Part shown: piece after piece, positions 9,193-53,262 of the stretch
Numbering within the stretch: position 1 is the first letter of the stretch
Layout: each line of letters starts with the position of its first letter
Virus record (IMG/VR): IMGVR_UViG_3300014911_000006
DNA: 57,580 nucleotides
Reading direction: 5' to 3' (one strand)
DNA from: a virus
The notes under the pieces: generated by a model
Told to the model about the DNA's origin: nothing
Seen by the model: the letters and a program-made list of their open reading frames with translations, nothing else
The model's database searches: none
Made by a program: the position numbers and the translations under genes

Positions 9193-9217
9193 TTTATATC
9201 ACCTCTCTATACTGTTT

Positions 9218-9448: not shown

Positions 9449-9455
9449 CTATATA

Positions 9456-10337: not shown

Positions 10338-10346
10338 GATATATAC

Positions 10347-11167: not shown

Positions 11168-11181
11168 ATAATATCACTCTC

Positions 11182-13327: not shown

Positions 13328-13329
13328 CT

Positions 13330-13840: not shown

Positions 13841-13866
13841 ATAGACATCACCTCTCTTTTCTTCTA

Positions 13867-14344: not shown

Positions 14345-14347
14345 ATT

Positions 14348-15433: not shown

Positions 15434-15441
15434 ATAGACAT

Positions 15442-15813: not shown

Positions 15814-15814
15814 C

Positions 15815-16402: not shown

Positions 16403-16406
16403 TATA

Positions 16407-19581: not shown

Positions 19582-19591
19582 CGTGTCCCAT
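19573..19591. promoter_or_regulatory. palindrome ATGGGACA-N3-TGTCCCAT overlapping the parB start codon
   Basis: perfect inverted repeat; second copy at 57208-57224. Confidence 0.7.
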
Positions 19592-19597
19592 CCTCCT

Positions 19598-32071: not shown

Positions 32072-32905
32072 CTAGCAGTTGTTTATGATACAGATGGCAT
32101 CATCATTAACGATCTCAACACCATACTCCATATAGAAGTTGAGTTCTACTGAGTCTGTTGATGGATTATCCCATCTCTTGAGTGTAAGTTCCCTCTTTAT
32201 AGCTAATACTGCCGCTCTAGTAGTATCTAAGACTATAGCCTTACCACTAGTCATGTTCTGAGTAACAAAGACCTTTAGACCAGCTATCTTCCCTATTTCA
32301 CCATTGAGTATAGGTTCTCTAGCTCCATAGGCACTAGCATCTATGAATCTATCATCCTGTAATAGATCTGCTTCTTGGTCTGGATGTATAACTAGAGCAT
32401 TAGGATTGTACTTAGCTGTTAACACCTTGTTTCTGGCTTTAACTATATCACCAAATGCTAGAGTACCAGTAGTAGCGGCATCTATACTTGTACTAGCAGT
32501 TAAGAGTTCTGTTATGATATCCTTGTCTTCCTTGTCAGCTATAGCTTCACCTGCTTCTAATATGTGATCCTTGATAAGATCAAACTCACATCCATCTATA
32601 GCTTCCTGTGTAATCTTAACTTGTAGACCTATCTTTGAAGGAGTAATCTGTACAGTAGAGTATGTAGCCTTAGTAGAGTAGCTTGATAGATCTTCTCCCT
32701 CACTAAGACTGTAGGCAGTGAGAGCACCTCTCTTAGGTATATAGAGACTCCTACCCTTAGCACCTACAAGATCCCTGTTAACTCTAACAAGAGACCTACC
32801 AACCCTCTTAGCTCTAGCAACTTCCTCTACCTGATCTACTATGATCTTAGGGAGAACAGAGGCTATATCTGTAGTAGTAAGAGCTAGTTCTTCTAAACCT
32901 TTCAT
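32072..32905 (-). CDS. major capsid protein, HK97 fold
   Basis: G..LYIPK, P.KIG..V.IT.E, LVIHP, GEIGKIAGLKVFVT. Confidence 0.9.
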   Translation of the reverse strand: MKGLEELALTTTDIASVLPKIIVDQVEEVARAKRVGRSLVRVNRDLVGAKGRSLYIPKRGALTAYSLSEGEDLSSYSTKATYSTVQITPSKIGLQVKITQEAIDGCEFDLIKDHILEAGEAIADKEDKDIITELLTASTSIDAATTGTLAFGDIVKARNKVLTAKYNPNALVIHPDQEADLLQDDRFIDASAYGAREPILNGEIGKIAGLKVFVTQNMTSGKAIVLDTTRAAVLAIKRELTLKRWDNPSTDSVELNFYMEYGVEIVNDDAICIINNC

Positions 32906-33024: not shown

Positions 33025-33354
33025 CTAGAGTTCTCCTCTTAACCATTTTCCTAGTATCCCCTTCTTAGCCGCATATTCTAGTATCTCCCAGTTACTATAT
33101 CTACCTAGCTCCTCTACTCTTCTATCTTCTCTTTTGACCTCTCTTGTTACTATAACTGGTTTGGAGAGTTCTATCTTAGCTTTCTCTAGTTGATCCTGTA
33201 GCTTCTGTATCTCTGACTGATAGTTACTGATCTCTCTCTTATATACTTCAACCTCTTCTCTTAGAGAGGATAACTCTTCAAACTGTCTCTCTATTATCTT
33301 TAATAGCTCTTTCTTAGGCATCTTATTGATCTTCTTTATAATATCTTCACTCAT
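33025..33354 (-). CDS. coiled-coil scaffolding protein candidate
   Basis: heptads; lies between protease and MCP. Confidence 0.6.
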   Translation of the reverse strand: MSEDIIKKINKMPKKELLKIIERQFEELSSLREEVEVYKREISNYQSEIQKLQDQLEKAKIELSKPVIVTREVKREDRRVEELGRYSNWEILEYAAKKGILGKWLRGEL

Positions 33355-33404: not shown

Positions 33405-34787
33405 CTAATCTTCTTGGCTTACAGCTATCTTGAAGAGTTCTCCTAGATGTACTTTCCCTTCTCTTACTAGCTGTCTAAGTTCATTGAGTACTTCTTCCTT
33501 ACTCTTAGGTTTAGGTGTCTCTTCCTTCTTCTCTTCTACAGGTGTCTCCTGTTTAACTTCCTCTGTCTTAGGAGCTTCTTCTTTAGGAGTCTCTACTTCT
33601 GGTTTTACTTTAACTTCTACTGTTACTGGTACTTTGGCTACTGGAGTCTCTTCTTTAGGAGCTTCTTCTTTCTTTTCCTCTATTACTGGTTGAGACTGAG
33701 GTTGTGCTTCCTGTTGAGGTGTCTGAGTTACCTGTGGAGTCTGAGAGGCACTAGGAGATGGAGAAGTCATCTGATCCTGACTAGGTTGAGGAGACTGAGG
33801 AGTAGCACTTAGCTCTTGAGACTTCTCTTCTGGTTCAGGATATTCATAGGGATACTCTTCTTCCTTCTTCTTCTTTTTCTTCTTCAGATATTCCTGTAGT
33901 TCTTTTAATCCTTCTTCTCCTAGCTTCTCTGATATGAATGCTAATATATCTTCTATATTCATCTTTTCAGGATATTTATAGTAACCATAGGGATAGTAGT
34001 AACCATAGTAACCATAAGGATATGGATAACCATAGTATATCACTATCTTCTTACCTACTGCTCTAGCTTCTTCAGGTATCTTGGTACTATCCTCTCCAAA
34101 TCTAACTATAACATGATCTCTCAGTTCCTCTGGTAGATGCTTCAAGATAGACTGTAAGAACTCATAAGCCTTATTCTCTATTTTAGCTAGTTCTTCCATT
34201 CCTATATCACCTTCCCTATGATATATAGACTTATCTTTATTACTTAAGCCTTCCTCTGTATGAATAATGAAACAGGTACTACAAGCAGGATTTCTAACTA
34301 GAGATAGTTCTCTAAACTGGAAATCATATCCCTCTGTACCATTCTCTGTATTCTTATAACTCATATAGGTGCTCATAGATACTGCTTTAAACTCTCCCTC
34401 TTTAACCAGCTTCTTAGCTTCAGGATCATCTATCTCTGCTTCAAACAGTATACCCTTAAAGAGATCCTCCCATTTAACCTTAGTAACTCTACCTACTTCT
34501 CTATCTTTAAACTTCTCATCTCTACCATGCTCTACTAGTATAGGTTTACCCTCTAACTGTTTCATAGCTTTCTTTAGCTCTTCACTAGGATAGAATACTC
34601 CATTCCACTTACCTTCTTTTAGAGCTATTCCTCTAATGATTAGAGGTTCTTCTGATAATATCTGGAATCTCCATACGTTATCTGATAATCTAGATAGACA
34701 CTTTAGATGCTGTACCTCTGACTGTAGCTCCTCTATCTGAGCTACTAGCTCCTGTATAATAGATTCCTTAGAAGACAAATACTTCAC
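33405..34787 (-). CDS. prohead maturation protease with low-complexity scaffold tail
   Basis: NGVFYPSEEL...KPILVEH, AVSMS, ELSLVRNPAC; then Tyr-rich and Pro/Gln/Glu-rich regions. Confidence 0.8.
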   Translation of the reverse strand: MKYLSSKESIIQELVAQIEELQSEVQHLKCLSRLSDNVWRFQILSEEPLIIRGIALKEGKWNGVFYPSEELKKAMKQLEGKPILVEHGRDEKFKDREVGRVTKVKWEDLFKGILFEAEIDDPEAKKLVKEGEFKAVSMSTYMSYKNTENGTEGYDFQFRELSLVRNPACSTCFIIHTEEGLSNKDKSIYHREGDIGMEELAKIENKAYEFLQSILKHLPEELRDHVIVRFGEDSTKIPEEARAVGKKIVIYYGYPYPYGYYGYYYPYGYYKYPEKMNIEDILAFISEKLGEEGLKELQEYLKKKKKKKEEEYPYEYPEPEEKSQELSATPQSPQPSQDQMTSPSPSASQTPQVTQTPQQEAQPQSQPVIEEKKEEAPKEETPVAKVPVTVEVKVKPEVETPKEEAPKTEEVKQETPVEEKKEETPKPKSKEEVLNELRQLVREGKVHLGELFKIAVSQED

Positions 34788-34832: not shown

Positions 34833-37800
34833 TCATGGTTTGCTCACTATCTCTGGAGGATTGTCTCCTCTCTTCATTATCCACTCATATCTAGATAGTC
34901 CCTTACCCTTCATCCATGCTCTAGCTGTCTCCTCTGTCCACTTGTCCTTATAGAACTTGAGATATGCTATTCTAGCATGATGAAATGTACCTTCTATAGG
35001 ATATAGACATACACCTATCTCTACTCCCTCTGGTACTTCTAATCCTATAGTCTTGAGATATGGTTCTGGATCTTCACATCTAGTGAACTCTCTAGGATCA
35101 TATAGTCTAAGATAGAAGTAGTCTCTATGATCTTCTAGTAGAGCTGGTTTATATGATTCTCCTGTATATGGATCTCCAGTAGATAGAGACTTATCTGTAG
35201 GTAGTTTAGATTTCATGAATATCCATCCTTTATCTGTCTTCTTAGTTATATAGTATCCTTTAAGCTTCTTGCCATGAAAGATCATAGACATGAAGATATC
35301 ACTATCCTCTATTATCTCTACTTCTCCTTTGTCTAATCTATCTACCTTGGTCTGTAGTTTACCTACCTTTACAAATCCCTCTGTTACCTCATCTGTTATC
35401 CACTTTAGATCTGTACACTTCTTTCTAACTGCTTCTATAGGTTCTTCTATATCTGTCTCTAGAGGATTACTGTATAGATTAAACTCATCTAGATAGTCTC
35501 TATTATCTATTCTCATTCTAATATCATAGTGAGATGTTATCTGTCCTCTAACAGGATATAGAGTATGCTTATCTAGAACAAATATACCCTTAGAGAGACT
35601 GTGTTTAGATATTCTAGAGAGAGTATAGATATCTGAGTCTGGTTCTTCTTGTCTTAATATATATTCTCCTTTTAGAGTCTTACCATTAAACTTTAACTCT
35701 AGTATCTCTTCTCCTAGAGATCCTTCTCCTGACTTGATGTCTACTGTACCTGTATCTAGTAGGACACAATGACATGGTATCTCTTTAGTAGGGCAGTATT
35801 GAGATCTAGGTTTAAGTTCTCCCTCTCTCTTCATCCATCTTCTATCTACTCTACCTTCATAGATAGCTGTTAATGGAGTCTCCCATACTGGATCTCCCTC
35901 AAACATCCATGATCTGACTGATCCTCTACCTCTATCATCTATCCTGATAAACCATCTTCTCTGAGGTATATCTCTAATTACTTTCTGTCCTTTCCAGTAT
36001 ATCATGGAGAATGAGAATCTAGGTTTAGCTAGAGACTCTTCTTCCTTCCACTTCTCCTTAACCCATTCTAACCATTCTTCATACTTCTTCTTGTTCTCTT
36101 CTATCCACCATTTAGGTATAGGTATATGTCCCTTGGGAGGATACCATCCCTTCTTTCTAGCTCTCTTACTTACAGCATAGGGTTCTTGATCTTTAGGTAT
36201 CATCACTCTCCACAGTAGCTCATATTCTCCCTTGATAGGTTTCTTGGTTTCTGGATCTATCTTCTGTGCCTTTACTCCTCTTATTACTACTCTAAGCTTC
36301 TTAAACTTCTCTCCATCTAGAAAGTACTCATGGAAGTATGGTTTCTGTGCTCCTATGGTTATCTTACCCTTATCTAGAAGATAGAACCATCCATATTCAT
36401 ATCTAGTAGCTCCTACTGATCCTTTAGGTATCTTTACTATATCTCCTATCTTCTTTAGTCTTCCTCCTAGATCTAACCATACAACTGGTTGTCTAGCTTT
36501 GGTCTCTGCTCTTAGTCCTACTCCTTTCTTGTTTGGAGTAAACTTCCAGTCATGTTTCTCTACTAACTCTTTAACTTCTTCCTTAGAGTCTGGTTTATCT
36601 TCTAGTCCATTATCTAGTATAGTCCATCCTATTAGATGATTATCTATCTTGAATCTGAAGTCTATATGTACACTATTGTGAACCCTTAAGAAACCTACTC
36701 CTGCTAAGAAATCTTGTGTCTCTGTTTCTACATCATATACATATCTCTTATGAGAATAGAAGAATGTTTCTTCATCAGTAGGAGTATTGACAAGATGTTT
36801 ACCATCCTTGTAGTTTGGATTCTTTTCTCCAATGAAATCTACTGCTTTAGATTCAACTATCTTTCTAACTGTATTTCTGTTCTTGACAGTAAGATTATGT
36901 TCTTTAGAAATTAGTCTAACTCTAATTAGATCTCCTTGTCCTCTTATGTAAAACTCTTTATCAGGATAAAGATTCTTCAGAATGATTAAGATTCCTTGTA
37001 TTAGAGACTGAGAAGAGGAAGCAAACTCTATCTTCTCAGGGTAGCCTATACCATCTCCTTTTAGGTAACCATCTAAAAATGCAGAGAGAGACTCTCTGTT
37101 CCAGTTGAAGATAAAGTCAGGAATGATCTTCCATCTTGCTTTTCTTTCTTTTACCTCATGTACACCTGTAACTGTTCCTTTTGTAAACCTGTAATCTCTG
37201 AAATAGAGATCAGTAATTTCTTTGAATCCTTCTTTCTTACTTTTAACAATGTGATAGTTGAAACCATATCTCTCAAGATAAGATATAACAGGTCTCAAGA
37301 TCTCTGGATCAGTAGTTGTAATCTTGACCACACCATTCCTCTTAACAGAACCCTCTGCTAGAAAGAGTCCCCAAGTATAGGCATAGTCAAGATCAACACT
37401 AACTTCAAGAGGTAATCTAGGAACAGGAATCTCATCTAGAGATACTCCTATCTGTAGATCCTTAGTAGCTATTTCTTGTCCGTTAGAGAAGAGAGAATGA
37501 TCCTCAGTTACTTCAACTACAGAATCCCAAGTAAAGACTCTATATATTCTTTTTGGAGGATGTTTATAGAATCTTTTTAGTTTCTTCCAACCTTTAGATG
37601 TCCAGATCTCTATGCTAGAGAGATCTTCTCTGTTTTCTAGAGTCTTTATAGGTATTACTCTTATTCTATCCTGTTCTCTAATAACTATTGGAGTTCTATC
37701 TGAGACACTTCTTCCTCTTATATGATATTGTAGGACATAGGGTAGCTTACCATTCTTGTTAGGAGGAGGTAGCTCCATATATCTAGCTATGTTAGCTTGT

Positions 37801-37844
37801 AGACTCTGATATCTATCTTTCAACATGTGTTTATAGATTATCAC
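34833..37844 (-). CDS. intein-containing protein with three LigD 3'-phosphoesterase-like domains plus a C-terminal unknown domain
   Basis: spliced YVLQYHIRGR|SVHIDFRF...GW matches LigD PE QxH...HxDFR; repeated LDxG...GxxLKG units. Confidence 0.7.
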   Translation of the reverse strand: MIIYKHMLKDRYQSLQANIARYMELPPPNKNGKLPYVLQYHIRGRSVSDRTPIVIREQDRIRVIPIKTLENREDLSSIEIWTSKGWKKLKRFYKHPPKRIYRVFTWDSVVEVTEDHSLFSNGQEIATKDLQIGVSLDEIPVPRLPLEVSVDLDYAYTWGLFLAEGSVKRNGVVKITTTDPEILRPVISYLERYGFNYHIVKSKKEGFKEITDLYFRDYRFTKGTVTGVHEVKERKARWKIIPDFIFNWNRESLSAFLDGYLKGDGIGYPEKIEFASSSQSLIQGILIILKNLYPDKEFYIRGQGDLIRVRLISKEHNLTVKNRNTVRKIVESKAVDFIGEKNPNYKDGKHLVNTPTDEETFFYSHKRYVYDVETETQDFLAGVGFLRVHNSVHIDFRFKIDNHLIGWTILDNGLEDKPDSKEEVKELVEKHDWKFTPNKKGVGLRAETKARQPVVWLDLGGRLKKIGDIVKIPKGSVGATRYEYGWFYLLDKGKITIGAQKPYFHEYFLDGEKFKKLRVVIRGVKAQKIDPETKKPIKGEYELLWRVMIPKDQEPYAVSKRARKKGWYPPKGHIPIPKWWIEENKKKYEEWLEWVKEKWKEEESLAKPRFSFSMIYWKGQKVIRDIPQRRWFIRIDDRGRGSVRSWMFEGDPVWETPLTAIYEGRVDRRWMKREGELKPRSQYCPTKEIPCHCVLLDTGTVDIKSGEGSLGEEILELKFNGKTLKGEYILRQEEPDSDIYTLSRISKHSLSKGIFVLDKHTLYPVRGQITSHYDIRMRIDNRDYLDEFNLYSNPLETDIEEPIEAVRKKCTDLKWITDEVTEGFVKVGKLQTKVDRLDKGEVEIIEDSDIFMSMIFHGKKLKGYYITKKTDKGWIFMKSKLPTDKSLSTGDPYTGESYKPALLEDHRDYFYLRLYDPREFTRCEDPEPYLKTIGLEVPEGVEIGVCLYPIEGTFHHARIAYLKFYKDKWTEETARAWMKGKGLSRYEWIMKRGDNPPEIVSKP
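36675..37709 (-). mobile_element. intein (345 aa, Ser1, HN/Ser+1) with LAGLIDADG endonuclease
   Basis: SVSDRTPI, TEDHSLF, GLFLAEGS, GYLKGDG, VHN|S. Confidence 0.9.
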
Positions 37845-37987
37845 TCAAAATCACCTTCCCATTCTCTTATTATAGGTGTTCTAAACTCTACCCATACTCT
37901 ACCACACTTCTGACATCTATAGATACATGAGTCTGCTGTACAGGACTCTATACTCCATTCATGTTTACATTCTTCTTTCTCACTCAT
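37841..37987 (-). CDS. 48-aa Zn-ribbon protein linking the ligase and PE genes (not in ORF track)
   Basis: MSEKEECKHEW...YRCQKCG; abuts the upstream stop and has a GTGA overlap downstream. Confidence 0.65.
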   Translation of the reverse strand: MSEKEECKHEWSIESCTADSCIYRCQKCGRVWVEFRTPIIREWEGDFE

Positions 37988-40900
37988 CTATTTACTCACC
38001 TCTATATATTCAGGTAGATCAGTTATATCTCTATACTCATAATAGTAGTCTTTAACATAGACACACTTGTATCTGTTAGCTAGATTACATCTAATGGGGA
38101 ATCTCAATGTCTCTACTTTTACTGATAACTGTTCTCTTATTCTTCTCTCTCTTTCTCTCCATCCCTCTGAATATAGAGGATATAGTGGACATATCTCTGG
38201 ATTATCAAAGTATGGACATCTCTGTAGAGGTATTCTTATCTCTGTCTTGGAGAGAGGATGTGTACCTGCCTCTGCTATTCTCAATGCTGTATCTAATCCA
38301 TCTGGTTCTTTCTTATCTATTCTCTTTCCTCTAAATATAGGGAACATCCATGTTAGATACTTCTTACCCTCTTCATCTCTGAATACTCTTATTCTGATAG
38401 GAGATACTGTTATTATATCTCCCTCTTTACACTTAACATCAGTATTATATGTTCTACCTATATGAAGATACCACTTACCATCTATCTCTACTAGAAACTT
38501 ATCACTCCACTTATCCTTCTCTTTAGGAGGTATTCTAATAACTGCTTCATAGTTATATGTACCTGCCTTAGTCTTATTTATCTTCCATACCATAACATCT
38601 ATCTCCTTTACATTCTTTATCTTGGAGTTATGAAGTATAAGATAAGGAGTGATATAGGAATCTTCTCCCTCTATTTGGAGATCATAGACTGTCTTTTTCT
38701 CATAGATCTCTCTAATCTTGATGGTTAGATCAGGTTCTCCTTTAAGGAATCTAAATCTGAAGTATCCTCTACCTCTTCTTGGCTTTAGTTTCTGAACTGA
38801 GACTTTAAATCCTCTATACTGAAGTATGAGGAAGAGTCTACCTGCAAGAGAACTACTAGATGTGGAGAACCCTACTCTCTTAGAAGAAGACTCAATCCAT
38901 CCATCACCCTCAAGATATCCTTCCAAGAATGCTTTAAACTTAGAATCATCTAACTTAGCAAGAAAGAGAGGAACAGTCTTACGGTCAGACTCATCTAAGA
39001 AGTGTTGACTTAACCAAGATGCAAAGGGAAGATCCCAGAATCTAAGAAGAGCAATCTTATATTTATAGAGAGAAGGTTTGACATTGAAGAGTCTTTCTAT
39101 TATCTTAGAATATTTCTCAAGAACAGAGGGATCTTTCTGACAGACAACTATGTCTCCTTTGTTTCCTTCTTTAGTCTTACTACTTCCTATCCATCCTTCT
39201 GCTACCCAGAATCCTAGGAATCTCCAGAAGTCTTCATTACACTCTATCTTCTTCTTGTAGCCATGCCAAGATAGAACTAAAGTCTTGGGAGGTTCTTCTG
39301 TATAAATCTCTAATTTTGGAAAGAGAGATTTCCTATCCCCTATTTCAGAGACTGGTATCCAAGAATCTGTTGTCAACAGTTCATGATTACCTGTTAATCT
39401 GATTGCTAAACCTGATAATGTTCTCACTTCAAATAATCTTTCCTCTGGTAACATTCTTCTCTTTTGGATAGCTACTATTCTATGTGGTTTTCCATCTTTA
39501 GAGTAAACTAAATCTCCTATCTTGAGATCCTTTACTTTCCTGAAGCCTTTAGGAGTAAGAAGATAAGATCCTCCTGTAATACACCACAGATCTGTTCTAG
39601 GAGTGCTTTTATATGATATCTTGTAAGTAGAGTTAGCTGTCTTTAACATAGCACCTTCACTATTAGGATAGTATCTAGCTTTATCTAGATATTCTTCAAA
39701 CTCATCCTTGTCTCTAGCTATCCATGACTCTACTAGAGACCAATGTCTTAATCCTTTAGGTACTAGCTTCTTTAATAGATTGAGTCTCTCTATATATGGT
39801 TTATCTGTTAACTGTTCTCCATCATAGTAGAGGATATCGTGTATATGGAAGACTACGCTTCTATCATCTAATCCCTTCTTAGCTACTATCCACTTTATCA
39901 TATCCTCTCTCTGATATTGTTCACACTTCTGTTCTATTTCTTTACCTGTCTTATATTTCTCTGCACATTCTGAAGGATAATCCACAAGTTCCGTGTCGAT
40001 TATATAGTCTTTCTCTGGAAACTTCTGTAGCATCTCTCTTACTGATTCTTTGAAGTATTTAGCTCTATCTCTTAACTGATCCTCTGTAAATATCCATATC
40101 TTATCTCCTGCTCTGTGTATCTGTAATCTAAAGCCATCATATTTAGGTTGTATCACTATACCATCATCTATATACTCTGATCCCCAGTTCTTCCATAACA
40201 TAACAGGATCAAAAAACTCATTCTTATTGAAGGTAGTACCTGTCTTCATAGGCTTAAATGGCTTACCTACTGTTATCTTCTTCTCTTTAGATAGAGACTC
40301 ATCTCTACTTACTCTAGTATATGATAGCTTGTAGAGAGGTATATTGTATCCTACCATAGCACCATGAGGAGAGTATATGAAGTGTAGTCTCTTAAATAAC
40401 CAATCTGGTAACACTCTCTCTAGTTCTTTTATCAATCTAGGATCAGGATATCTCTGCTTGATAACTATATCTATATCATGATCTACAGGTATCTCTCCTT
40501 CATTGACTATTCTACCTACTAGGAATATATGAGCAGGAGGATCATTGATAGTGAATGTATTAGGAAATGCATCTAGTACCTCTTTTAGTGTTATCTTATC
40601 TTTCTCTAGTCCTTTAGGAGGAGAAGGATATTCTACTACTATAAGTTCAGATTCTCTATCTAGTTTATCTTTGATAGTATGAGGTATGTTTCTCTCTAGC
40701 ATCTCTTTCCATACAAATATGTGAGCATTGATAGTCTCTTCTGATATTCTACCCTTTTCTTCTAGTTCTCTATTTGCTACTTCATGTAACCAGTCATGTA
40801 GAGATATTAGATCTTTATCAGATAGACTTCTAACTAATCTATCATCTATTTTCTCTATACTCCATTCTGCTAACTCTTCTATCTCTTCTAGATTTATACC

Positions 40901-43576
40901 CTTCTTCTTCAATCTCTCTTTAACCTTCTCATAAAGTTCTCTAGCATACTTCTTCATCTCTTTAGGTCTAAACGTATGTTTTAACTTACCTGCTTTAACT
41001 CTTCTATAGATTTCCTCTACTATCTTTTCTCCAAATTCTACACATTTGTCAGGAGTGAGTTCTATCTTTTTACCAAACTCATGAACATGAATCTTCTTGC
41101 CTCTTCTAATACTGCTATGCCATCCACAGTTATGAACGATAAATGGGATACAGTAAGTATGATCTCCATCAACCACTAGATTATAGACTTTACCAGAATA
41201 ATGTTCTTTCCAGACTTTCTTGATTGGAAGTATTAGATAACCATCTTTCCTAAAGATTACTTGTCCTAGTTTAGGATTAGCTGTAATAGTGTAAGCAATA
41301 GAAGAACCAAAATTAGTTTCTTTAGTGCTCTCAGAGATTGAACCTATCTTTCCTAGCTTAAGTAGACAGAGAAATGCAGAGTAGACCAACTTCTTACTAA
41401 CTGTTGAAACACAGAATGGATGACTCTTCTTTCCATCTCCCTTCCTCCAACAATCAAGAAGTAATTGAATCTTCCTAGGTTCTTCATCTATAACCCATTG
41501 AGGTATAACTTTATTCTTAGCTCCTTTCCCAAAATTGTTTACAAGGAAATCTCTTAGTTCTTTAGAATAAAGATTGATCCTTATCTCTTTTTCTAGTTTC
41601 TTCATAGATCCCTTAATGCCTAATCGTTTAGCTAGTTGTAGGATCTCTTCAGCATATTCTATCTCTAGAGGAGATAAAGAGAAACGTATACAGCCAGAAG
41701 ATGCAGGGAATCCTTCTGCTAGATACCATCCTGCCAGACTGAAGATTTCATCTGGTAGTCCTGAAGGGATAATCTTTTGTGGAATTGGTATCTTAACACC
41801 ATGTCTCTTAGGCTTAAGATCTCTAGCTTCTATCCATTGTTCTTCATATTTATATCCAAGAGATACCCTTCCACCATATGTATTCTTCCAACCTAGATAT
41901 CTTCCTAATCTAGGAACGTAAGAGTTTCTATCATGATCTATTGTAACAATTAGAATAGGATGTTCAGGAGTGGTAGCAAACTCTCCTAGATAAGCTACTC
42001 TAAACTTGATAAGTTCACCATCATAATCTCTACTAAGAGTTTTTAAAATTCTACTTTGACCACTAGAACCAAGGATAGTCTTACTTTCTGGTTGAGAGAT
42101 AAAGGAGAGGGTAGGATTAGTCCATATTAGTGTGTCTGGTGGAAAACATAATATCCTCCAATCATCGGCTAACGGGAGATTGTCTACTTTCTTAGGATCA
42201 TATTTCCCTATATCCTGTATAAGATCTACTCTATCTAGGATACAGTAGCTAGTATCTCTCATACCTTTAGGATGAGGTATCTCTAGTCTATTGAAACACT
42301 CTACTAGATAGTTATGATACTCTATATCTTCATCTGTTATCTCTTCTTTAGAGTGTATCTTAGCATGTTCTAATATTAAATCTTCTAGAGTGAGATCTAA
42401 TACTATATTCTCTGGTTTAATGAATACCTGTGCTCCTCTAGGATACTCTACTGATATAGGAGTAGAGAACTGTTTCAATACAGAGACATGATAGGAATAT
42501 AGTTTATCCTTCTTAGAGAATGACCATCTATCTGCCTCTTCATCTGTTATCTTATGATATTCTCTTAACTGTTTAAACTGTTCTTGTGTTATCTCTTCTG
42601 GTTCATCTAGTCTAATTATACCTAGAGCTTTCTTATCTTCTATTAACAGTAGAGGTTCATTGATATGTTCAGTATACTTCTTAGATTTGATTACTAGTGT
42701 CTTCTCTCCTTTCATAATAAGAGTACCATGAGGAGATACTAGGATATATCCAGCTGTATATTCAGGTATATCTGCTATCTTCTTAGGAGTAATGATATCT
42801 TCTGTGGTAACAGTAAGATCTTTAGAGGATATCTCCATCTTGTCTCTAGCTACTGTTATCTTTATATCTCTGTCTCCCACTAGATCCCCTATCTTCTCTT
42901 TCAATTCTCTATCTCCCATCCCTACTGCTTCTTCTCCTAGATGTGTAAGTATAAGATGTCTAATATCATTTTCTTCTAATATATCTAGTAGCTCTCTAAC
43001 AGAGAGATGACCATATATCTCTCCTGTATCCTTATCTCTTCTAGTTATAGACTTATCTATTGTAGAGGTATCTCCTATCCATACATCTATGTTCTTAAGA
43101 TACTTCTCCTGTTTATCTTTCTTTATCCATCTCATATCTGGAGCATATATTATTCTCTTGTTATCTACTTCTATTAAGAGTATATCCATAGGATGTTTAA
43201 CAGAGTGTAGTACAGGTATAGGAGTTATCTTAAAGTCTCCTAGAGTATTAGTCTGCTCTGATTCTAGTATCTTCAGTCTATTCTCTTTCTTGAAGTGTTC
43301 TATCCAAGAGGGAGTACAGGTATCAAATGTTAGTCTAGTAGCATAGATATCACAGTTAGGATCTTCTTCCTTTAATCCTCCTATATGATCTTTATGTGAG
43401 TGTGTGATTACTATATAGTCTGGTTTGATATTCTCTATCTTCCAGTCTCTATCTACTCCTACATCTACTAATAGCTTCTGTCCACTATTACTGATAACAA
43501 GAATAGAAGAGTGATTTCTATGATTACTATTCTCTTTATCTATTTCTCCCTTAGTACCTAGAAATACTATCTTCAA
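37988..43576 (-). CDS. 1862-aa polyprotein: MBL-fold hydrolase + ASCH-like + His-rich repeats + Pol-beta NTase-like + ATP-dependent ligase (adenylation + OB), two inteins
   Basis: THSHKDH/HSVKH/LTHL; GYILVSPHG..I.KGEKT; LVGRIV...HDIDI; PKYDG, DTELV, HDIL, EGAMLK, W|SKIK, PIFRGKR.DK. Confidence 0.85.
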   Translation of the reverse strand: MKIVFLGTKGEIDKENSNHRNHSSILVISNSGQKLLVDVGVDRDWKIENIKPDYIVITHSHKDHIGGLKEEDPNCDIYATRLTFDTCTPSWIEHFKKENRLKILESEQTNTLGDFKITPIPVLHSVKHPMDILLIEVDNKRIIYAPDMRWIKKDKQEKYLKNIDVWIGDTSTIDKSITRRDKDTGEIYGHLSVRELLDILEENDIRHLILTHLGEEAVGMGDRELKEKIGDLVGDRDIKITVARDKMEISSKDLTVTTEDIITPKKIADIPEYTAGYILVSPHGTLIMKGEKTLVIKSKKYTEHINEPLLLIEDKKALGIIRLDEPEEITQEQFKQLREYHKITDEEADRWSFSKKDKLYSYHVSVLKQFSTPISVEYPRGAQVFIKPENIVLDLTLEDLILEHAKIHSKEEITDEDIEYHNYLVECFNRLEIPHPKGMRDTSYCILDRVDLIQDIGKYDPKKVDNLPLADDWRILCFPPDTLIWTNPTLSFISQPESKTILGSSGQSRILKTLSRDYDGELIKFRVAYLGEFATTPEHPILIVTIDHDRNSYVPRLGRYLGWKNTYGGRVSLGYKYEEQWIEARDLKPKRHGVKIPIPQKIIPSGLPDEIFSLAGWYLAEGFPASSGCIRFSLSPLEIEYAEEILQLAKRLGIKGSMKKLEKEIRINLYSKELRDFLVNNFGKGAKNKVIPQWVIDEEPRKIQLLLDCWRKGDGKKSHPFCVSTVSKKLVYSAFLCLLKLGKIGSISESTKETNFGSSIAYTITANPKLGQVIFRKDGYLILPIKKVWKEHYSGKVYNLVVDGDHTYCIPFIVHNCGWHSSIRRGKKIHVHEFGKKIELTPDKCVEFGEKIVEEIYRRVKAGKLKHTFRPKEMKKYARELYEKVKERLKKKGINLEEIEELAEWSIEKIDDRLVRSLSDKDLISLHDWLHEVANRELEEKGRISEETINAHIFVWKEMLERNIPHTIKDKLDRESELIVVEYPSPPKGLEKDKITLKEVLDAFPNTFTINDPPAHIFLVGRIVNEGEIPVDHDIDIVIKQRYPDPRLIKELERVLPDWLFKRLHFIYSPHGAMVGYNIPLYKLSYTRVSRDESLSKEKKITVGKPFKPMKTGTTFNKNEFFDPVMLWKNWGSEYIDDGIVIQPKYDGFRLQIHRAGDKIWIFTEDQLRDRAKYFKESVREMLQKFPEKDYIIDTELVDYPSECAEKYKTGKEIEQKCEQYQREDMIKWIVAKKGLDDRSVVFHIHDILYYDGEQLTDKPYIERLNLLKKLVPKGLRHWSLVESWIARDKDEFEEYLDKARYYPNSEGAMLKTANSTYKISYKSTPRTDLWCITGGSYLLTPKGFRKVKDLKIGDLVYSKDGKPHRIVAIQKRRMLPEERLFEVRTLSGLAIRLTGNHELLTTDSWIPVSEIGDRKSLFPKLEIYTEEPPKTLVLSWHGYKKKIECNEDFWRFLGFWVAEGWIGSSKTKEGNKGDIVVCQKDPSVLEKYSKIIERLFNVKPSLYKYKIALLRFWDLPFASWLSQHFLDESDRKTVPLFLAKLDDSKFKAFLEGYLEGDGWIESSSKRVGFSTSSSSLAGRLFLILQYRGFKVSVQKLKPRRGRGYFRFRFLKGEPDLTIKIREIYEKKTVYDLQIEGEDSYITPYLILHNSKIKNVKEIDVMVWKINKTKAGTYNYEAVIRIPPKEKDKWSDKFLVEIDGKWYLHIGRTYNTDVKCKEGDIITVSPIRIRVFRDEEGKKYLTWMFPIFRGKRIDKKEPDGLDTALRIAEAGTHPLSKTEIRIPLQRCPYFDNPEICPLYPLYSEGWRERERRIREQLSVKVETLRFPIRCNLANRYKCVYVKDYYYEYRDITDLPEYIEVSK
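38627..39583 (-). mobile_element. intein (319 aa) in ligase motif V, LAGLIDADG
   Basis: W|CITGGS...LTGNHELL...GFWVAEGW...GYLEGDG...LHN|S. Confidence 0.92.
41129..42148 (-). mobile_element. intein (340 aa) in an uncharacterised domain, LAGLIDADG
   Basis: RIL|CFPPDT...TPEHPIL...GWYLAEG...CWRKGDG...VHN|C. Confidence 0.92.
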
Positions 43577-43624: not shown

Positions 43625-45712
43625 ATGTCTACAATGAAGAAGCTCTATAGATATTTTGATAACAAGAATATTCTGATTACAGGTGGAGGAGGATTTATAG
43701 GAACTAATCTAGCTAGGAGATTGGTATCTAACTATAACTGTAATGTTACTGTAGCTGATATTAGATTTATAGATTGGTATCTAGAGGATATAGATAGGAA
43801 ACTAGAGAAGATAAGAGTAGATATAAGAGATTATTGGAGATGTCTAAAACTAACTAGAAGAAAGGATATAGTGTTTCATCTATCTGCTAATATGGGAGGT
43901 ATAGGATTCATAGTTACCAATAGAGCTAATGTTATGAGAGATAATCTGAGAATGAATATCAATATGTTAGAGGCTAGTAAGGAGAATAATGTAGAGAGAT
44001 TCTTCTTCTCTAGTTCTGCTTGTGTATATCCAGAAGAGAAGCAGACTACTCCTGATGTTAAGCCTCTAAGAGAGGAGGATGCTATACCTGCTAACCCTGA
44101 TACCTGCTTTACACCTGAAACTATAGTCTACACACAACCAGAGATCAAGAAGATAGAAGAAGTCAAAGAAGGAGATAAGATTCTGAGTGGAGATGGAACT
44201 CTCAGAGAAGTTAAAAGGATCTTCAAGAGACATTATGATGGAAAGATTAGGAAAATAAAGACTTGGATGTATAATATACCCATAAGAGTAACACCAAATC
44301 ATCCATTCTTAGTAGCTAAACGAAAGAAATCAAGACTAAGAGCATTTGAAAAACCAAGATGGTTACCTGCGTTTTCTGTTAAGAAAGGAGATGCATTAGT
44401 GATACCAATAATGAAAGAGATTGAAGAGAAAGAAGTAGATGAGGGATTCTTGAAATTAGCAGGCTATTATCTAGCTGAAGGTTCAATAGATCACAAGAAG
44501 TGTTTTGATAAGCAATATGGTAAAAAGTATTTCAATGGTTGGAGGGTAGCTCTATGGTTTAGTGAGAAAACAAGAGAATTAATGGAAGATATTGAAGAGT
44601 ATCTTAAGACTAGGAAGATAGGATTCACTAAGTATCAACATAAGAATCTTATTGGATTTGAGATAACCTCTAAAGAAATAGCAAGAGAACTAGAAGAATT
44701 TGGGAAAGGAGCTTACAATAAGAAGATTCCTCTATGGATCATGAAATTGCCAAAAGAGAAACAGAGAGTATTCTTAGATGCATATCTTCAAGGTGATGGA
44801 GCAATCTTCAGAGACAAGAATATTGGAAGAGAAATAATAGTAGCAACTACGGTCTCTAGAAGCTTAGCTTTCCAATTAGTTCAAATGTTTCTTAGACAAG
44901 GATATTGTCCTTCAATTACTTTAACCGAAAACAAGGATAGTAAATTAGAAGGCAGAGTCATTAAGGGTGGCTTGATCTTTAGAGTAAAGGCAACAAAGAG
45001 AAAGGGTGACAAGAAATCCAATTGGGCATCTTGGATTGATAATGGTTTCTACTATGTCTTGGTAAGAGAAAGCAGAGAGGAAGACTATTCTGGTCTGGTT
45101 TATAATAGTGAAATAAGCACAATACATAGCTATACTGTAGGAATAGGCTTAGTTGTTCACAATTCCTATGGATGGGAGAAGCTAACTACTGAGAAGCTAT
45201 GTGAAGCATATTATCTAGACTATGAGCTAGAGACTAGAGTAGCTAGATTCCATAATATCTATGGAGAATACTGTAGTTTTGATGAGAGAGGTAAAGCTCC
45301 TGCTCATCTTATAGGTAAAGCGTTACTGTATCCTAGAGTTAGATTTACTATATGGGGAGATGGTAGACAGACTAGATCATTCTGTTATATAGAAGACTGT
45401 CTAGATGCTGTATTACTGTTAACATCATCTGATATTAGAGAACCTCTAAATATAGGATCAGATAGACTTGTTACTATAGATGAACTAGCTAATATGATTA
45501 TAAAGATATCTGGTAAGTATATTGAGAAGGAGTATATAGAAACAGGTATACAGGGAGTAAGAGGAAGGAATGCTGATCTAACTAAGATAAGACAGTTACT
45601 AGGATGGTATCCTAAGTATAGTCTAGAAGAGGGATTAGAGAGAACATTTACATGGGCTTTAAAGAATATTAATAGAATAGATTGGAGTTATCTTCTTAGA
45701 AGTGTTTCTTGA
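43625..45712 (+). CDS. NAD-dependent nucleotide-sugar epimerase (GDP-mannose 3,5-epimerase-like), intein-containing
   Basis: TGGGGFIG, ANMGGIGFI, SSSACVYPE, spliced PANPDT|SYGWEK, GDG.QTRSF. Confidence 0.9.
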   Translation: MSTMKKLYRYFDNKNILITGGGGFIGTNLARRLVSNYNCNVTVADIRFIDWYLEDIDRKLEKIRVDIRDYWRCLKLTRRKDIVFHLSANMGGIGFIVTNRANVMRDNLRMNINMLEASKENNVERFFFSSSACVYPEEKQTTPDVKPLREEDAIPANPDTCFTPETIVYTQPEIKKIEEVKEGDKILSGDGTLREVKRIFKRHYDGKIRKIKTWMYNIPIRVTPNHPFLVAKRKKSRLRAFEKPRWLPAFSVKKGDALVIPIMKEIEEKEVDEGFLKLAGYYLAEGSIDHKKCFDKQYGKKYFNGWRVALWFSEKTRELMEDIEEYLKTRKIGFTKYQHKNLIGFEITSKEIARELEEFGKGAYNKKIPLWIMKLPKEKQRVFLDAYLQGDGAIFRDKNIGREIIVATTVSRSLAFQLVQMFLRQGYCPSITLTENKDSKLEGRVIKGGLIFRVKATKRKGDKKSNWASWIDNGFYYVLVRESREEDYSGLVYNSEISTIHSYTVGIGLVVHNSYGWEKLTTEKLCEAYYLDYELETRVARFHNIYGEYCSFDERGKAPAHLIGKALLYPRVRFTIWGDGRQTRSFCYIEDCLDAVLLLTSSDIREPLNIGSDRLVTIDELANMIIKISGKYIEKEYIETGIQGVRGRNADLTKIRQLLGWYPKYSLEEGLERTFTWALKNINRIDWSYLLRSVS
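44105..45163 (+). mobile_element. intein (353 aa) just before the catalytic YxxxK, LAGLIDADG
   Basis: T|CFTPET...TPNHPF...GYYLAEGS...AYLQGDG...VHN|S. Confidence 0.92.
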
Positions 45713-46631
45713 TATTACTAGCTAGATCTAGATGATGATATGCTGGATACTGATACTCTTCAGCATAATATTTGACCACACTATATGAATCAGAGAACAG
45801 ACCTACTATCTTATGATTTTTCAAAACAGAGGAGTAGAGAATAACATGCTTCCTATTTGTAATATGATTAGGGATAAGATGTACTATTCCTTTAACTGTA
45901 GCTGGATCTAGTTCTAGATTTATCCATTCTAGTAGCTTATTCTTCTCTTCTTTAGATATATCTAGATTAGAGATAACATAGGAAAAGAGTATATGATCCA
46001 TCTCTGGTGTATAGAATCTATGTTTACACATTATGATAGGAACAACAGTATAGTCTCTAGATAATATCTGATATGACTTGAACATAGGAAGGATAAACTC
46101 TGATCTGTTTCTGCATGATAAACCTATTAAAGGCTTATCAGTATCAAAGTATCTCTCTATTAGCTGTTTTGCTTTATCTATATTAGGTGTAATCTCTAAT
46201 GCTGGATCTCTAACTACCTCTACATTCTCTATTCCTATCTGCTCTAGATTTCTCTTATCCCAGTTGGTTCTAACAGATAGATAGTTTACTCTATTGAGAG
46301 CATACTTGACTATTAAGACATCTGATATCATTATATGAGATCCTACTCCATATACTGTTACTGGTTTATCTTGTCTAAGATATGCTATCACTCTCTCCAT
46401 ATAGTTTCTAGCTGATCCATCATATAGTATACCTCCTCCTCCTAGTATCAGTTCATCCAGATCATCTCTAAACTTAGTAGTAAAGGGAATATCAGGACAG
46501 TAGTCTCTATGTTCTTTAGGAGCTAGAGAATATACCATAATATCTCTAGTACCAAATATCTTTAGACATCCTAGTAGTATAGCATCATCTCCTCTGTTTC
46601 CTGCTCCATAAGCTCCTATCAGTAATCTCAT
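45696..46631 (-). CDS. polysaccharide pyruvyl-transferase-like (CsaB/WcaK) protein
   Basis: GAYGAGNRGDDAIL, GGGGILYD, YGVG, SVR. Confidence 0.8.
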   Translation of the reverse strand: MRLLIGAYGAGNRGDDAILLGCLKIFGTRDIMVYSLAPKEHRDYCPDIPFTTKFRDDLDELILGGGGILYDGSARNYMERVIAYLRQDKPVTVYGVGSHIMISDVLIVKYALNRVNYLSVRTNWDKRNLEQIGIENVEVVRDPALEITPNIDKAKQLIERYFDTDKPLIGLSCRNRSEFILPMFKSYQILSRDYTVVPIIMCKHRFYTPEMDHILFSYVISNLDISKEEKNKLLEWINLELDPATVKGIVHLIPNHITNRKHVILYSSVLKNHKIVGLFSDSYSVVKYYAEEYQYPAYHHLDLASNIKKHF

Positions 46632-46879
46632 TGTATATCTCCATATAGTTTAACTTCTTCCTTTACATAAGGAGTCTTCTTACCTGTAACTAGATCTGCT
46701 ATTAGTCTATCTATCTCACTCTTAACTATCCATCTCTCCATGTTTAGTTGATCTATCTTCTTCTTACACTCTGTAGTTATCTTGGGATCATAGTTAGACT
46801 TTCTTATCTTACTTTCTAGATGAAATATCTTGTTATTGATAATGGATAATCTCTCTATTAGATCAGATAGTGTCTCCAT
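46628..46879 (-). CDS. small helical protein (DUF4254-like)
   Basis: LSDLIERLSI.N.KI.HLE...LN.ER. Confidence 0.5.
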   Translation of the reverse strand: METLSDLIERLSIINNKIFHLESKIRKSNYDPKITTECKKKIDQLNMERWIVKSEIDRLIADLVTGKKTPYVKEEVKLYGDIQ

Positions 46880-46883
46880 ACTC

Positions 46884-48665
46884 TTATAACACCTCTCTTA
46901 GATCTCTATTAAAGAAGAGTTTTTCTACTATAAGAGTATACATATTCTCTAGGTTATCTGTCTTACTATACCAGTAGTCTACTGTCTCTATATATCTATC
47001 TATCTGTTGTTCTCTAGCAGAGAACTTTCTAGGATCATTAGACTGTATCTGAGTATCTCTATTAGGGAGTATATGTATGCTAGGAGTTCTAGTTAGAATA
47101 GACAACCACCATATACCAGTATCTATAGATACAAGGAGATCAGTATTAAGGAGTTCAGATATTACTCCATCTATATCTAGCTTAGATCCTCTATTATCTA
47201 TCTCTGTTCTTCCCTGATATGGTTCTAGACTTAGATTAACTATCTCTATATCTCTTGTCTTCTTTAATCTATCTAGTAGATTATCTATTTTAGAGTAATC
47301 TAGTCTAACTATACAGGAGAGACCTGATAGAGATAATCCTATCTTATATCTCTTCTTCTTAGGTCTAGGAGTGTATCTATCTAGAGAGATAGAGGGGATA
47401 AGTGTTCTATTTATACCACATCTAACATAGATAAATCTATTAAAGGAATAACTAGATTGATAGAACTCTCTCTCATATTCAGGATTTATCTGTGGTATCA
47501 GTAGATCTCTATATTGTTCTCCTATCTTTCTAGCTTTATGATAACCTATACCGAATATATTCTCCTGTATATTACTGGTTTCTCTTATAGAGATTAACTG
47601 ATCTATATATGATATCTTAGAGAGAAAGTCTTTATAGTGATGAGAACATAACCATACTATCTTGTCTCCCTGTCTCTTATAGTATTCTGCTACTGGTAGT
47701 GTAGCTACTATATCTCCTAATCTACCTAGCTGTAGTATACAGGTAGCATCTATCTTTATGTTGCACTGTGCAACATTACCATTATAGGGTATCTTATAAG
47801 TTCCTCCTCTACATGGATAGTTCTTAGTTAAATCATAGAGAGGAGGATGCTGTTGTGCTCCTCTAGGTAGATCTCCCCATTTACTATAGTAGAGTAAGAG
47901 ATTCTTCTTGAATAGATCTATCTTCTTAGCTCTCTCTTCTGGATGATCATAATAGTATTTACCTCCAAAGTGTCTGAATCTACATCTCCTGTTTCTGTAG
48001 CCTCTATATCCTGCTAGATATATTCTATGGAGAAAGTCATTGTCCTCTACATATCTAGGTTCATATATCTCATCAAAGTATCCTACTATCTCTATTGTCT
48101 TAGGAGTAACTAGAAAGGCAGAGAAGTCTCCAGTATATACTGTATCATCCATATCTTCATATATTCCTCTAGATATTCCTCTAGGAGGAGATAGATAGTC
48201 TACTCCATTCATGAAAATACAGTCATCTAGCTTATTATAGTCTTCTATCATCTTCTCAATATAGTTTCTCTCTAGATCTATATCATTATTGAAGACAAAG
48301 ATATAGTCTGCATCATGTTCTATAGCATATCTTATACCTGTATTCCATGCATGAGCTACACTCTTTCTACCTTTAAGGATAATGTGATTTATCTGTTCAC
48401 TAGATAGATATTCTAGAGTGCCATCTGTAGAACAGTTATCTACTACTAGGATAGAACACTTATCTATTATACTCTGATTTCTTAGAGACTGTATCGTTAA
48501 TCTAGTATCCTCTAAACATTGAAAGGTAGTAACTATTAAGAAGATAGATTTAGGAGACAGATCTATCTTCACCTCTCTCTTTCTCTTCTTCTCTTCTTCT
48601 ATTCTAGATAAAATATAGAACTGATCTCTTCTCTTTCTTCTTAGAATCTTCTTTCTTCTCCTCAT
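46884..48665 (-). CDS. bifunctional glycosyltransferase: GT2 (GT-A) + GT9-like (GT-B)
   Basis: VVDNCSTDGT, NNDI, GYFDE..EDNDF; RLGDIV..LP, SIDTG. Confidence 0.85.
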   Translation of the reverse strand: MRRRKKILRRKRRDQFYILSRIEEEKKRKREVKIDLSPKSIFLIVTTFQCLEDTRLTIQSLRNQSIIDKCSILVVDNCSTDGTLEYLSSEQINHIILKGRKSVAHAWNTGIRYAIEHDADYIFVFNNDIDLERNYIEKMIEDYNKLDDCIFMNGVDYLSPPRGISRGIYEDMDDTVYTGDFSAFLVTPKTIEIVGYFDEIYEPRYVEDNDFLHRIYLAGYRGYRNRRCRFRHFGGKYYYDHPEERAKKIDLFKKNLLLYYSKWGDLPRGAQQHPPLYDLTKNYPCRGGTYKIPYNGNVAQCNIKIDATCILQLGRLGDIVATLPVAEYYKRQGDKIVWLCSHHYKDFLSKISYIDQLISIRETSNIQENIFGIGYHKARKIGEQYRDLLIPQINPEYEREFYQSSYSFNRFIYVRCGINRTLIPSISLDRYTPRPKKKRYKIGLSLSGLSCIVRLDYSKIDNLLDRLKKTRDIEIVNLSLEPYQGRTEIDNRGSKLDIDGVISELLNTDLLVSIDTGIWWLSILTRTPSIHILPNRDTQIQSNDPRKFSAREQQIDRYIETVDYWYSKTDNLENMYTLIVEKLFFNRDLREVL

Positions 48666-48937
48666 TGTACTTCAAAGTAGTATCTCTCTTTACCTGTCTT
48701 ATCTGACTTCACTACCTTCCACTCTACATACCAGACTCCTGTATTAGAATCAGAAGGAATATTATAATCAATATAATAGACACCTGTAGATTCCTGAGTA
48801 GGAGAAGTATTGGTCTCTTTAAGAGTATTTGATGGATCATATATCTTTATCTCTTGACTATCTGGATCAAACAGATTACCATTAAAGTCTTTTATAGTAG
48901 CTTTTATTCTTACTGTCTCTCCTCTATATACTGTCAT
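48662..48937 (-). CDS. Ig-like/BppU-like small virion protein
   Basis: all-beta pattern, STGVYYIDY..P...GVW. Confidence 0.6.
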   Translation of the reverse strand: MTVYRGETVRIKATIKDFNGNLFDPDSQEIKIYDPSNTLKETNTSPTQESTGVYYIDYNIPSDSNTGVWYVEWKVVKSDKTGKERYYFEVQ

Positions 48938-50412: not shown

Positions 50413-50981
50413 GTTCCATCATAAACATTATCATCTGTTACACCTGTCCCCATACGGTCAGATGCTAATCTTGCTCTACACTTCATTGAAGTATTGTAAC
50501 TAAAGGTTTCAACTGTTTTTATCTCACTTGTTGCAGGAACTTGTAAAATCCCATCAGAAACACTAGGTGAACCTGTAACAGTACTCCATTTATTTGTATC
50601 CAAACTTGGGAAGTCATCAAAAAATGGGAAGGTAGCTTCTCCATTTGATATGCTTGTTGCATCAGATTTTCCATAGTATATGTAGATTGTCTTGGTGTTT
50701 GGTGATGCAGGTATGCTATCTACTTCAACCCAAAAAATTGCGTAATCTCCATCTACCTTTTCCTCTATCCAATAGTCTAGTAGTGTTTCACCATCACTTG
50801 AAGCAAACCTTACATCTCCAAAATCCGTTCTACAATGCTCATTTAAATAGACATCTTCCCCACTATCACTACCACTACCATAATGAGCTTTTATCTTAAT
50901 CTGATAATTGCTTTGAGCACCTGCACTAGAACCATTTATAGTATGAGATTTCCTGTAGCTCCATCCTGATAACCATCCCAA
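50358..50981 (-). CDS. DUF2341-domain protein, N-part (split from the downstream ORF by a -1 frame change)
   Basis: WSYRK...DFGDVRF...LDYWIE...WV.V..IP..IYIYYG...FPFFDDF. Confidence 0.75.
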   Translation of the reverse strand: MGWLSGWSYRKSHTINGSSAGAQSNYQIKIKAHYGSGSDSGEDVYLNEHCRTDFGDVRFASSDGETLLDYWIEEKVDGDYAIFWVEVDSIPASPNTKTIYIYYGKSDATSISNGEATFPFFDDFPSLDTNKWSTVTGSPSVSDGILQVPATSEIKTVETFSYNTSMKCRARLASDRMGTGVTDDNVYDGTWANGFLLGTQFSQIGGL

Positions 50982-53257: not shown

Positions 53258-53262
53258 TATTC

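Follow-up and report, generated by a model that had tools for sequence, protein, structure and literature searches.

A conserved ligase and PE-fold module among the head genes of tailed viruses: a candidate cargo of the prohead protease

Why should a tailed virus keep a DNA-sealing enzyme among the genes that build its head? The question is raised by a stretch of viral DNA of 57,580 nucleotides (IMG/VR record IMGVR_UViG_3300014911_000006), referred to here as the window, which is a fragment of a tailed virus encoding its own PolB and a RadA-like gene, and whose genes are also present in independent assemblies. As an earlier note made from the DNA alone had correctly placed them, three open reading frames (ORFs) lie ahead of the genes for a prohead protease (33405–34787), a coiled-coil scaffold-like protein (33025–33354) and an HK97-fold major capsid protein (MCP; 32072–32905), all on the minus strand. 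Gene A (37988–43576) encodes a ligase polyprotein of 1862 amino acids (aa) with the domain order MBL, ASCH, three helical repeats (H1 to H3), minimal NTase, ligase NTase plus OB, and a four-cysteine (Cys4) domain. Gene B (34833–37844; 1003 aa) encodes three LigD-PE folds and a family-specific C-terminal domain, and between the two genes lies a 48-aa Cys-rich ORF, a Zn ribbon (37841–37987). The reading that we favour, with fair confidence, is that A and B are head-packaged, protease-cut cargo, which would be ejected and act on viral DNA.

Linkage to head genes and a linker motif that follows the protease

Homologue searches returned 63 close homologues of A and 43 of B, and 105 non-redundant ligase loci were assembled from viral, metagenome and genome contigs; the tallies leave out the low-scoring ligase matches L061 and L109-L114, which form an outgroup. 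Linkage to the head was counted over the 59 non-redundant loci with at least 5 kb of downstream sequence. A PE gene is present at 58 out of these 59 loci. A head gene (portal, terminase, protease or MCP) lies near 52 of them, and near 56 once four more neighbours are identified as portal, terminase or MCP, so that the pairing of ligase and PE with head genes, checked across the relatives, is not scattered. A and B form a single ORF in 12 homologues. Furthermore, the PE part runs in frame into an HK97-type protease at L092, L158 and L038, and in-frame fusions to an XkdF protease occur at L044, L050, L089, L091, L095, L097 and P0112; the two fusion types sit in separate parts of the ligase tree, of which a quick, unfinished version was used. 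The link with head assembly suspected in the earlier note is thus supported by conserved synteny and by natural fusions to two protease families. What remains constant throughout the family is the core of ligase and PE: MBL, ASCH, helical repeats and NTase may be missing or stand in another order, ASCH is mobile, and Dam-like or C5 methyltransferases or NUDIX domains are added in distant members.

In many relatives the module fits tightly between portal and protease, the slot envisaged at the outset; in the window it does not. Here the portal (52022–53257, within a terminase and portal segment at 52022–55527) is 8.4 kb upstream of gene A, with virion-accessory, glycosyltransferase and opposite-strand epimerase genes in between. 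Because this epimerase is the last gene before A, gene A probably comes first in a transcription unit reaching the MCP. A scan for sigma-70 promoters was uninformative. The absence of a MuF gene, also remarked on earlier, holds for five genomes of the window's clade, in which none was found, but distant members possess MuF as a separate gene. The module was also considered as a general MuF replacement, which is ruled out by the distant members that carry both. Large MuF-domain proteins adjoin the ligase polyprotein in some of these (L096:2946-5015, L095:3353-6514, L172:383-4177), and one of them has an ATLF-like metallopeptidase-fold match. For A and B themselves, a Pfam scan whose profiles did not include one for the metallopeptidase (MPTase) returned no metallopeptidase match.

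The second line of evidence is a short motif, (E)x-L-[S/A], which is conserved at the N-terminus of the MCP, on both sides of the protease domain and in those linkers of A and B that were modelled with low confidence. In the window, all on the minus strand, the candidate sites in gene A are ESLS in the linker between NTase and ligase (40289–40300), EELA (40868–40879), HPLS (38249–38260) and EQLS (38123–38134); those in gene B are HSLS between PE2 and PE3 (35592–35603), ESLA (36027–36038) and KSLS (35181–35192). EEGLS (L181) stands immediately after the catalytic domain of the protease, and EELA near the N-terminus of the MCP. Among viruses with the window's protease family, L[S/A] occurs in 119 out of 185 domain linkers (64%), compared with 22% in composition-preserving shuffles, and K[A/Q/S] occurs in 50 of the 185. 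Random segments of 20 residues contain L[S/A] in 8% of cases within domain interiors and in 17–23% in control proteins. Enrichment over shuffles is found in gene A between NTase and ligase (28/37), between OB and Cys4 (25/37) and within Cys4 (32/37), in gene B between PE1 and PE2 (10/18), PE2 and PE3 (22/27), and PE3 and the C-terminal domain (16/26), and likewise after the protease (27/32) and at the start of the MCP (23/27). When all dipeptides are ranked in 14 segments with a low predicted local distance difference test score (pLDDT), LS comes first in three, and LS or LA is among the top four in three more. The motif is also present in the tail of the protease and in the scaffold-like protein.

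What is more telling is the behaviour of the motif when the head module is exchanged. In viruses with an XkdF or a third protease family, K[A/Q/S] is found in 17 out of 24 linkers (71%, compared with 30% after shuffling), and L[S/A] is at chance (6/24; 25% vs 24% shuffled). The residues following the protease domain agree with this: they are EELS-like in 26 out of 29 members of the window's protease family and VKS or VKG in all three of the other proteases. L032, L033 and L040 are the nearest relatives of the window's ligase (SH-aLRT 93), yet their head module is the other one and their linkers carry the K motif. Since they group with the window's ligase in this way, the motif tracks the head protease and not the ancestry of the ligase.

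Domains of the two proteins and their surroundings

The size of gene A is in part misleading. The domains of the polyprotein described in the earlier note are confirmed, but 659 of its 1862 aa are intein, leaving 1203 aa; gene B loses 345 aa to reach 658, and removal in silico restores the interrupted motifs. Intein 1 (LAGLIDADG; 41129–42148, residues 477–816 of A) lies within helical repeat H2, intein 2 (38627–39583, residues 1332–1650) just ahead of ligase motif V, and intein 3 (36675–37709, residues 46–390 of B) between the first two metal-binding His residues of PE1. Intein 1 is missing from a 98%-identical virus (G001) and from three other runs. With those of TerL (53263–55527) and of the NAD-dependent epimerase (43625–45712), the window contains five inteins within 21 kb. 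The epimerase intein and intein 1 are both missing from G001; hence the inteins are polymorphic in the population. For structure models we used homologues that are free of inteins by nature, taken from a complete genome of 120 kb (for gene A, P0001; pLDDT 82).

The ATP-dependent ligase is the best-defined part of gene A (Pfam E 2e-26). Its NTase domain (39584–40261) has motif I as KYDG with K1145 and intact motifs III, IIIa and IV, and motif V (KxK) with the OB domain follows at 38270–38626, assigned by structure match and alignment. The motif residues K, D, G, E, D, EG and KxK are invariant in 48–50 rows of the alignment and are present in the window. Residues 735–1094 of the model superimpose on human LigIII and LigI and on archaeal and T4 ligases (Z 22–23; root-mean-square deviation (rmsd) 3.0–3.5 for the closed forms); DNA ligases are the top matches, and no RNA ligase is among the first 50. 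A C-terminal OB domain is not known from the RNA ligases Rnl1 and Rnl2. According to these models, the core of gene A would be a minimal ATP-dependent DNA ligase of ~360 aa (NTase and OB) with its motifs intact. The Cys4 domain behind it (38033–38233) retains its four cysteines in 48 out of 48 rows and probably binds Zn.

The N-terminal MBL-fold hydrolase (42827–43576; Pfam E 2e-17) has intact HxHxDH, H, D, H and H motifs and is PhnP/RNase Z-like, with structural matches to PhnP (Z 21.8), ZipD (21.6) and Apyc1 (17.8); fold and binuclear metal motifs are present, and the PhnP, RNase Z and Apyc1 subfamilies are not told apart. The ASCH domain (42404–42757) matches TTHA0113 over its full length (E 1.1e-6). 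MBL, ASCH and ligase, as first proposed, are confirmed by Pfam or profile matches, MBL and ligase by structure matches as well. The minimal NTase-like domain of the Pol-beta superfamily (40301–40594; GRxxNEG...HDID) is a more equivocal case: its G..N..DxD motif is invariant in 50 out of 50 rows, with GR in most and a downstream Asp in 46, but profile and structure support is weak, for NTP_transf_2 is matched by only five out of 43 members (best E 4e-5), and the three PDB matches, all of them NTases, have E values of 0.36 or higher.

Of the helical repeats, H1 and the N-terminal part of H2 occupy ~42149–42400, and the C-terminal part of H2 and H3 occupy 40622–41128. H2 and H3 are homologous to each other, and the top Pfam family for both is T4 endonuclease V (Pyr_excise), with weak matches (E 0.01–0.02; hhalign probability <5%). 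The catalytic residues of T4 endonuclease V (Thr2, Arg22, Glu23) are not conserved in the repeat alignment, a search of archaeal genomes for Pyr_excise members found none, and an ESM Atlas search with H2 gave no usable match. The likeness is therefore weak and unproven; if the identity held, a full base-excision pathway would follow.

Gene B does contain the three LigD-PE-like domains that had been recognized, as folds; metal ligands are retained in two of them, and the full LigD active site in none. PE1 (36045–36674, with its first strand carrying Q39 and H41 upstream of intein 3; profile match E 6e-4) keeps H41, H393, D395 and R397, and sequence alignment puts Ala, Gln and Trp at the positions of LigD Glu82, His84 and Tyr88. 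PE3 (35202–35591; E 2e-12 to the archaeal PE 3p4h) keeps H760, H772, D774 and R776, and in the alignment it has lost the His84 equivalent and has Trp for Tyr88. The equivalents of the metal triad His42/His48/Asp50 and of Arg52 show little or no variation in PE1 and PE3 and are absent in PE2 (35607–36026; model residues 263–398), which nevertheless superimposes on 3p4h over 115 residues (Z 16.0, rmsd 2.0). In Pseudomonas aeruginosa LigD PE, His84 and Tyr88 are essential, and Glu82 is needed for the phosphatase step (PMC8656161). Because His84 and Tyr88 are replaced in PE1 and PE3 and PE2 has no metal ligands, gene B, as judged from its residues, is a PE scaffold and not a canonical LigD PE, and a 3'-healing activity is unproven. 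The conserved C-terminal alpha/beta domain (34869–35177) is apparently limited to this family: a profile search with it collected 83 proteins, none of which pointed to another family, and an ESM Atlas search gave no usable match.

The 48-aa Zn ribbon lies outside the conserved module. It is a lineage-specific insertion found only in the window virus and its 98% relative, and A and B overlap or abut in nearly all others; as a component of the system, which the earlier note had made it, it is ruled out. The "complete heal-extend-seal toolkit" of that note was overstated: the PE folds are without essential residues, MBL and ASCH are optional, the Zn ribbon is no part of it, and for the "extend" step the NTase is minimal and there is no sign of templated extension.

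The protease itself was assigned from weak PHROG matches (E 5e-4), and the scaffold-like protein from weak matches and position. The catalytic domain of the protease ends with a conserved Cys-x-x-Cys; its tail consists of Tyr/Pro/Gly-rich repeats (YGYPYPY) followed by acidic and Pro-rich scaffold-like sequence, and the repeats are expanded in relatives (L008:6962-8779; L009:9482-11644). Many relatives possess an archaeal LonB-type protease gene directly after the portal, within the head module (L010:985-3363; L016, L018, L019, L022, L031, L168), and one subgroup with a rearranged head module has a second or displaced MCP-like gene (L020, 358 and 354 aa; L017, L035, L027).

Elsewhere in the window, a glycosylation cluster between portal and gene A (43625–48665) comprises the plus-strand epimerase, a pyruvyl-transferase-like gene and a GT2; it probably serves virion or host surface glycans, and a GT4 is located at 14348–15433. 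Two adjacent ORFs of 207 and 492 aa (48934–50981) correspond to a single ORF of 787 aa in G001, possibly reflecting a frameshift or an assembly error in a virion-accessory gene. A helix-turn-helix gene and a calcineurin-like phosphoesterase gene (56066–57154) lie immediately upstream of the small terminase, and an AAA+ (MoxR-like) ATPase and vWA gene pair is found at 2375–5234 on the plus strand. A replication and metabolism block (7217–20380) contains PolB (16407–18842, ~19 kb from gene A) and the RadA-like gene, both by Pfam, together with genes that we read as an XPF-like nuclease, ThyX, DHH/RecJ-like, SAM decarboxylase, RNase HI, small primase subunit, ParB and an SSB-like protein. Relatives turn up on contigs that were binned with Archaeoglobales, Thermoprotei, Aenigmatarchaeota, Ignisphaera and Methanophagales, and some encode archaeal LonB; TBP was sought in five viral genomes and not found. 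The host of the window virus is likely to be archaeal.

Proposed function and its rivals

We propose that A and B each make up half of a single head-associated polyprotein cargo. Both would be made alongside the head genes and incorporated into the prohead, where the protease would cut them at the (E)x-L-[S/A] sites into single domains. The released ligase core would then enter the host with the genome and seal nicks or ends in viral DNA, be it cuts by host nucleases, damage gathered outside the cell, or the closure of the genome. The metal-binding PE1 and PE3 probably prepare DNA ends, their remodelled active site suggesting a chemistry unlike that of the textbook LigD PE. MBL, ASCH and minimal NTase, like the Dam and C5 methyltransferases and NUDIX domains of relatives, would be exchangeable cargo for early protection or counter-defence, delivered by the same route. 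The first part of this scheme, packaging in the head and cleavage, was a guess in the earlier note; as a deduction from synteny, protease fusions and a linker motif that is common to MCP and protease and co-varies with the head module, we now regard it as likely.

Several observations weigh against the proposal. It is a prediction from genes and modelled folds, and no capsid-targeting signal was identified in A or B. The linkers between MBL and ASCH and between H1 and H2 show no enrichment of L[S/A] over shuffles; the L[S/A] motif was first spotted by eye and the K class was chosen post hoc; and the K-type linkers scored number only 24, at related loci that are not independent, so that p-values overstate the case. 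All three PE folds are without the His84 and Tyr88 that are essential in the P. aeruginosa enzyme. A few relatives, L017, L030 and L087, have a cassette that is rearranged or divergent from the head genes. Finally, this ligase is the only ATP-dependent one in eight out of ten genomes and may also serve replication.

The last point, together with the presence of PolB in many of these genomes, is the main argument for an unlikely but serious alternative: a late ligase module that is not packaged, closes nicks or processes ends in concatemers before or during packaging or acts as the sole replicative ligase, and owes its position among the head genes to timing only. A late-operon position is by itself no proof of packaging. 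Nevertheless, a separate ligase exists elsewhere in two out of the ten genomes (a frame of 547–582 aa), and the fusions to two protease families and the protease-tracking motif are left unexplained.

We give a low probability to a second alternative, in which A and B are packaged in the prohead and not ejected, so that they work at the portal or within the head while it fills with DNA, or in which the motifs mark a scaffold-like destruction. It would be in keeping with the motif in the protease tail and the scaffold-like protein and with the site within the Cys4 domain (32/37), where a cut might serve inactivation or release. Most sites, however, fall between catalytic domains, the interiors of which show the motif in 8% of segments, and methyltransferase, MBL and NUDIX cargo require host substrates or cofactors.

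Is the substrate RNA? A packaged kit for RNA repair or anti-signalling, in which PE and MBL mend RNA ends bearing a 2',3'-cyclic phosphate or a 3'-phosphate or degrade cyclic nucleotides, and the ligase rejoins tRNA cleaved by host defences, would account for an MBL nearest to PhnP and RNase Z with Apyc1 close behind, for ASCH and a minimal NTase suited to RNA or nucleotide conflicts, and for an altered PE active site that leaves the substrate open. We consider it quite improbable for the module as a whole: the ligase has an OB domain and finds no RNA ligase in its first 50 structural matches, MBL and ASCH are dispensable from a core of ligase and PE, and DNA methyltransferases are fused in relatives. 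RNA repair, raised as a possibility at the outset, is thus disfavoured, and DNA is the favoured substrate, because the OB-type ligase matches DNA ligases and relatives carry DNA methyltransferases; for MBL, ASCH and NTase alone, the RNA or anti-signalling reading may apply. No RNA holder of the module is among those listed. That the set is a chance collection of accessory genes, unlinked to the head, in a portal-to-protease region which is variable and takes up many unrelated genes is very improbable and largely refuted by the linkage at 56 out of 59 loci across very distant viruses, the protease fusions and the motif switch.

Returning to the proposal of packaged and ejected cargo, a wider statement is conceivable, which we put forward tentatively as possible and short of probable: in widespread archaeal and bacterial tailed viruses the prohead protease would be a general route for delivering enzymatic polyproteins, a head-borne ligase and PE folds of new chemistry would restore or close the chromosome after entry, and cleavage sites would re-evolve with each exchange of the head module. 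The head-packaged defences known from tailed viruses act by shielding, methylation or inhibition. If the proposal is true, a large group of uncultured viruses would carry repair after cutting as a strategy in the virion, and DNA break repair carried in the particle would counter host nucleases or extracellular damage. The protease motif would offer a predictor, from sequence alone, of internal head proteins in uncultured viruses, and the family is a source of minimal ligases and PE variants that are open to testing without virus culture; since some holders live in hydrothermal habitats, the ligases are probably thermostable.

Comparison with known systems

The earlier note did not recognize this architecture from characterized viruses, and our literature search agrees: it found no ligase and PE cargo tied to a prohead protease, nor any account of tailed viruses that package a DNA ligase together with end-processing folds, a passing mention in the RNA-repair review of Burroughs and Aravind remaining possible. 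A search of 50,697 GenBank phage records gave ANMV-1 as the only match. Its AJP62006 (KP703175, "ATP-dependent DNA ligase") is a true member, an NTase-ligase-PE fusion of 866 aa, which unlike the window has no MBL, ASCH or third PE and is annotated as a ligase only; we found no discussion of it in the literature. The preceding gene, AJP62005 (L196:1913-3193), is annotated as a "MutT-like phage hydrolase", and position and sequence suggest a portal. Rambo et al. described the "ligD" of Nidhogg as a gene of replication that has a TFIIS-like finger.

LigD and archaeal non-homologous end joining (NHEJ; LIG-POL-PE and Ku; PMC8656161) resemble A and B in combining an ATP-dependent ligase with PE folds, often fused, and in keeping the PE metal triad. 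Unlike LigD, A and B have no POL domain (a Pfam scan and structure matches revealed no primase-like one in either protein), three PE copies in which His84, Tyr88 and Glu82 are replaced, and a virion-module context. Ku (PF02735) was absent from five viral genomes, four of them complete. Because there is no Ku, no POL domain and different PE residues, the module is not a LigD/Ku NHEJ system.

For the use of the protease, the closest parallels are the ejection proteins of SPN3US/phiKZ-like phages and T4, where one short motif is likewise common to MCP, protease and internal cargo; in SPN3US, the prohead protease cuts MCP, itself and internal cargo at one motif (PMC10052503). The differences are that their motif is AxE, in contrast to L-[S/A] or K-[A/Q/S], that their cuts remove N-terminal propeptides whereas those of A and B are predicted between catalytic domains, and that their cargo is not a ligase. 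For a repair kit within the particle, the parallel is African swine fever virus (ASFV), which packages base-excision-repair enzymes – ligase NP419L, Pol X and AP endonuclease (PMC12172490) – proposed, as we propose for A and B, to mend the genome before replication. ASFV, however, is a eukaryotic nucleocytoplasmic large DNA virus with separate enzymes, no PE domain and no fusion to a maturation protease.

The nearest concept is that of the polyvalent proteins and of head cargo fused to MuF, portal or protease, such as DarA and DarB of P1 or Alt of T4 (Iyer et al. 2017, PMC5512222; Iyer et al. 2022, PMC9503650). Like A and B, these are large proteins of several domains whose genes lie among head genes, and their counter-defence domains, adenine methylases and NUDIX among them, are interchangeable. 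Packaging, processing and injection have been predicted or demonstrated for them – DarB is packaged in the P1 particle (PMC5512222) – and are predicted for A and B. Archaea are reported to be poor in polyvalent proteins, and no ligase, LigD-PE or ASCH cargo is described in that paper, whose main text contains no match for LigD or ASCH (PMC5512222). In A and B, moreover, no MPTase or MuF anchor was detected, and processing is apparently left to the prohead protease. The module is thus real and conserved, and apparently a variant, new to the literature, of the known strategy of polyvalent virion proteins.

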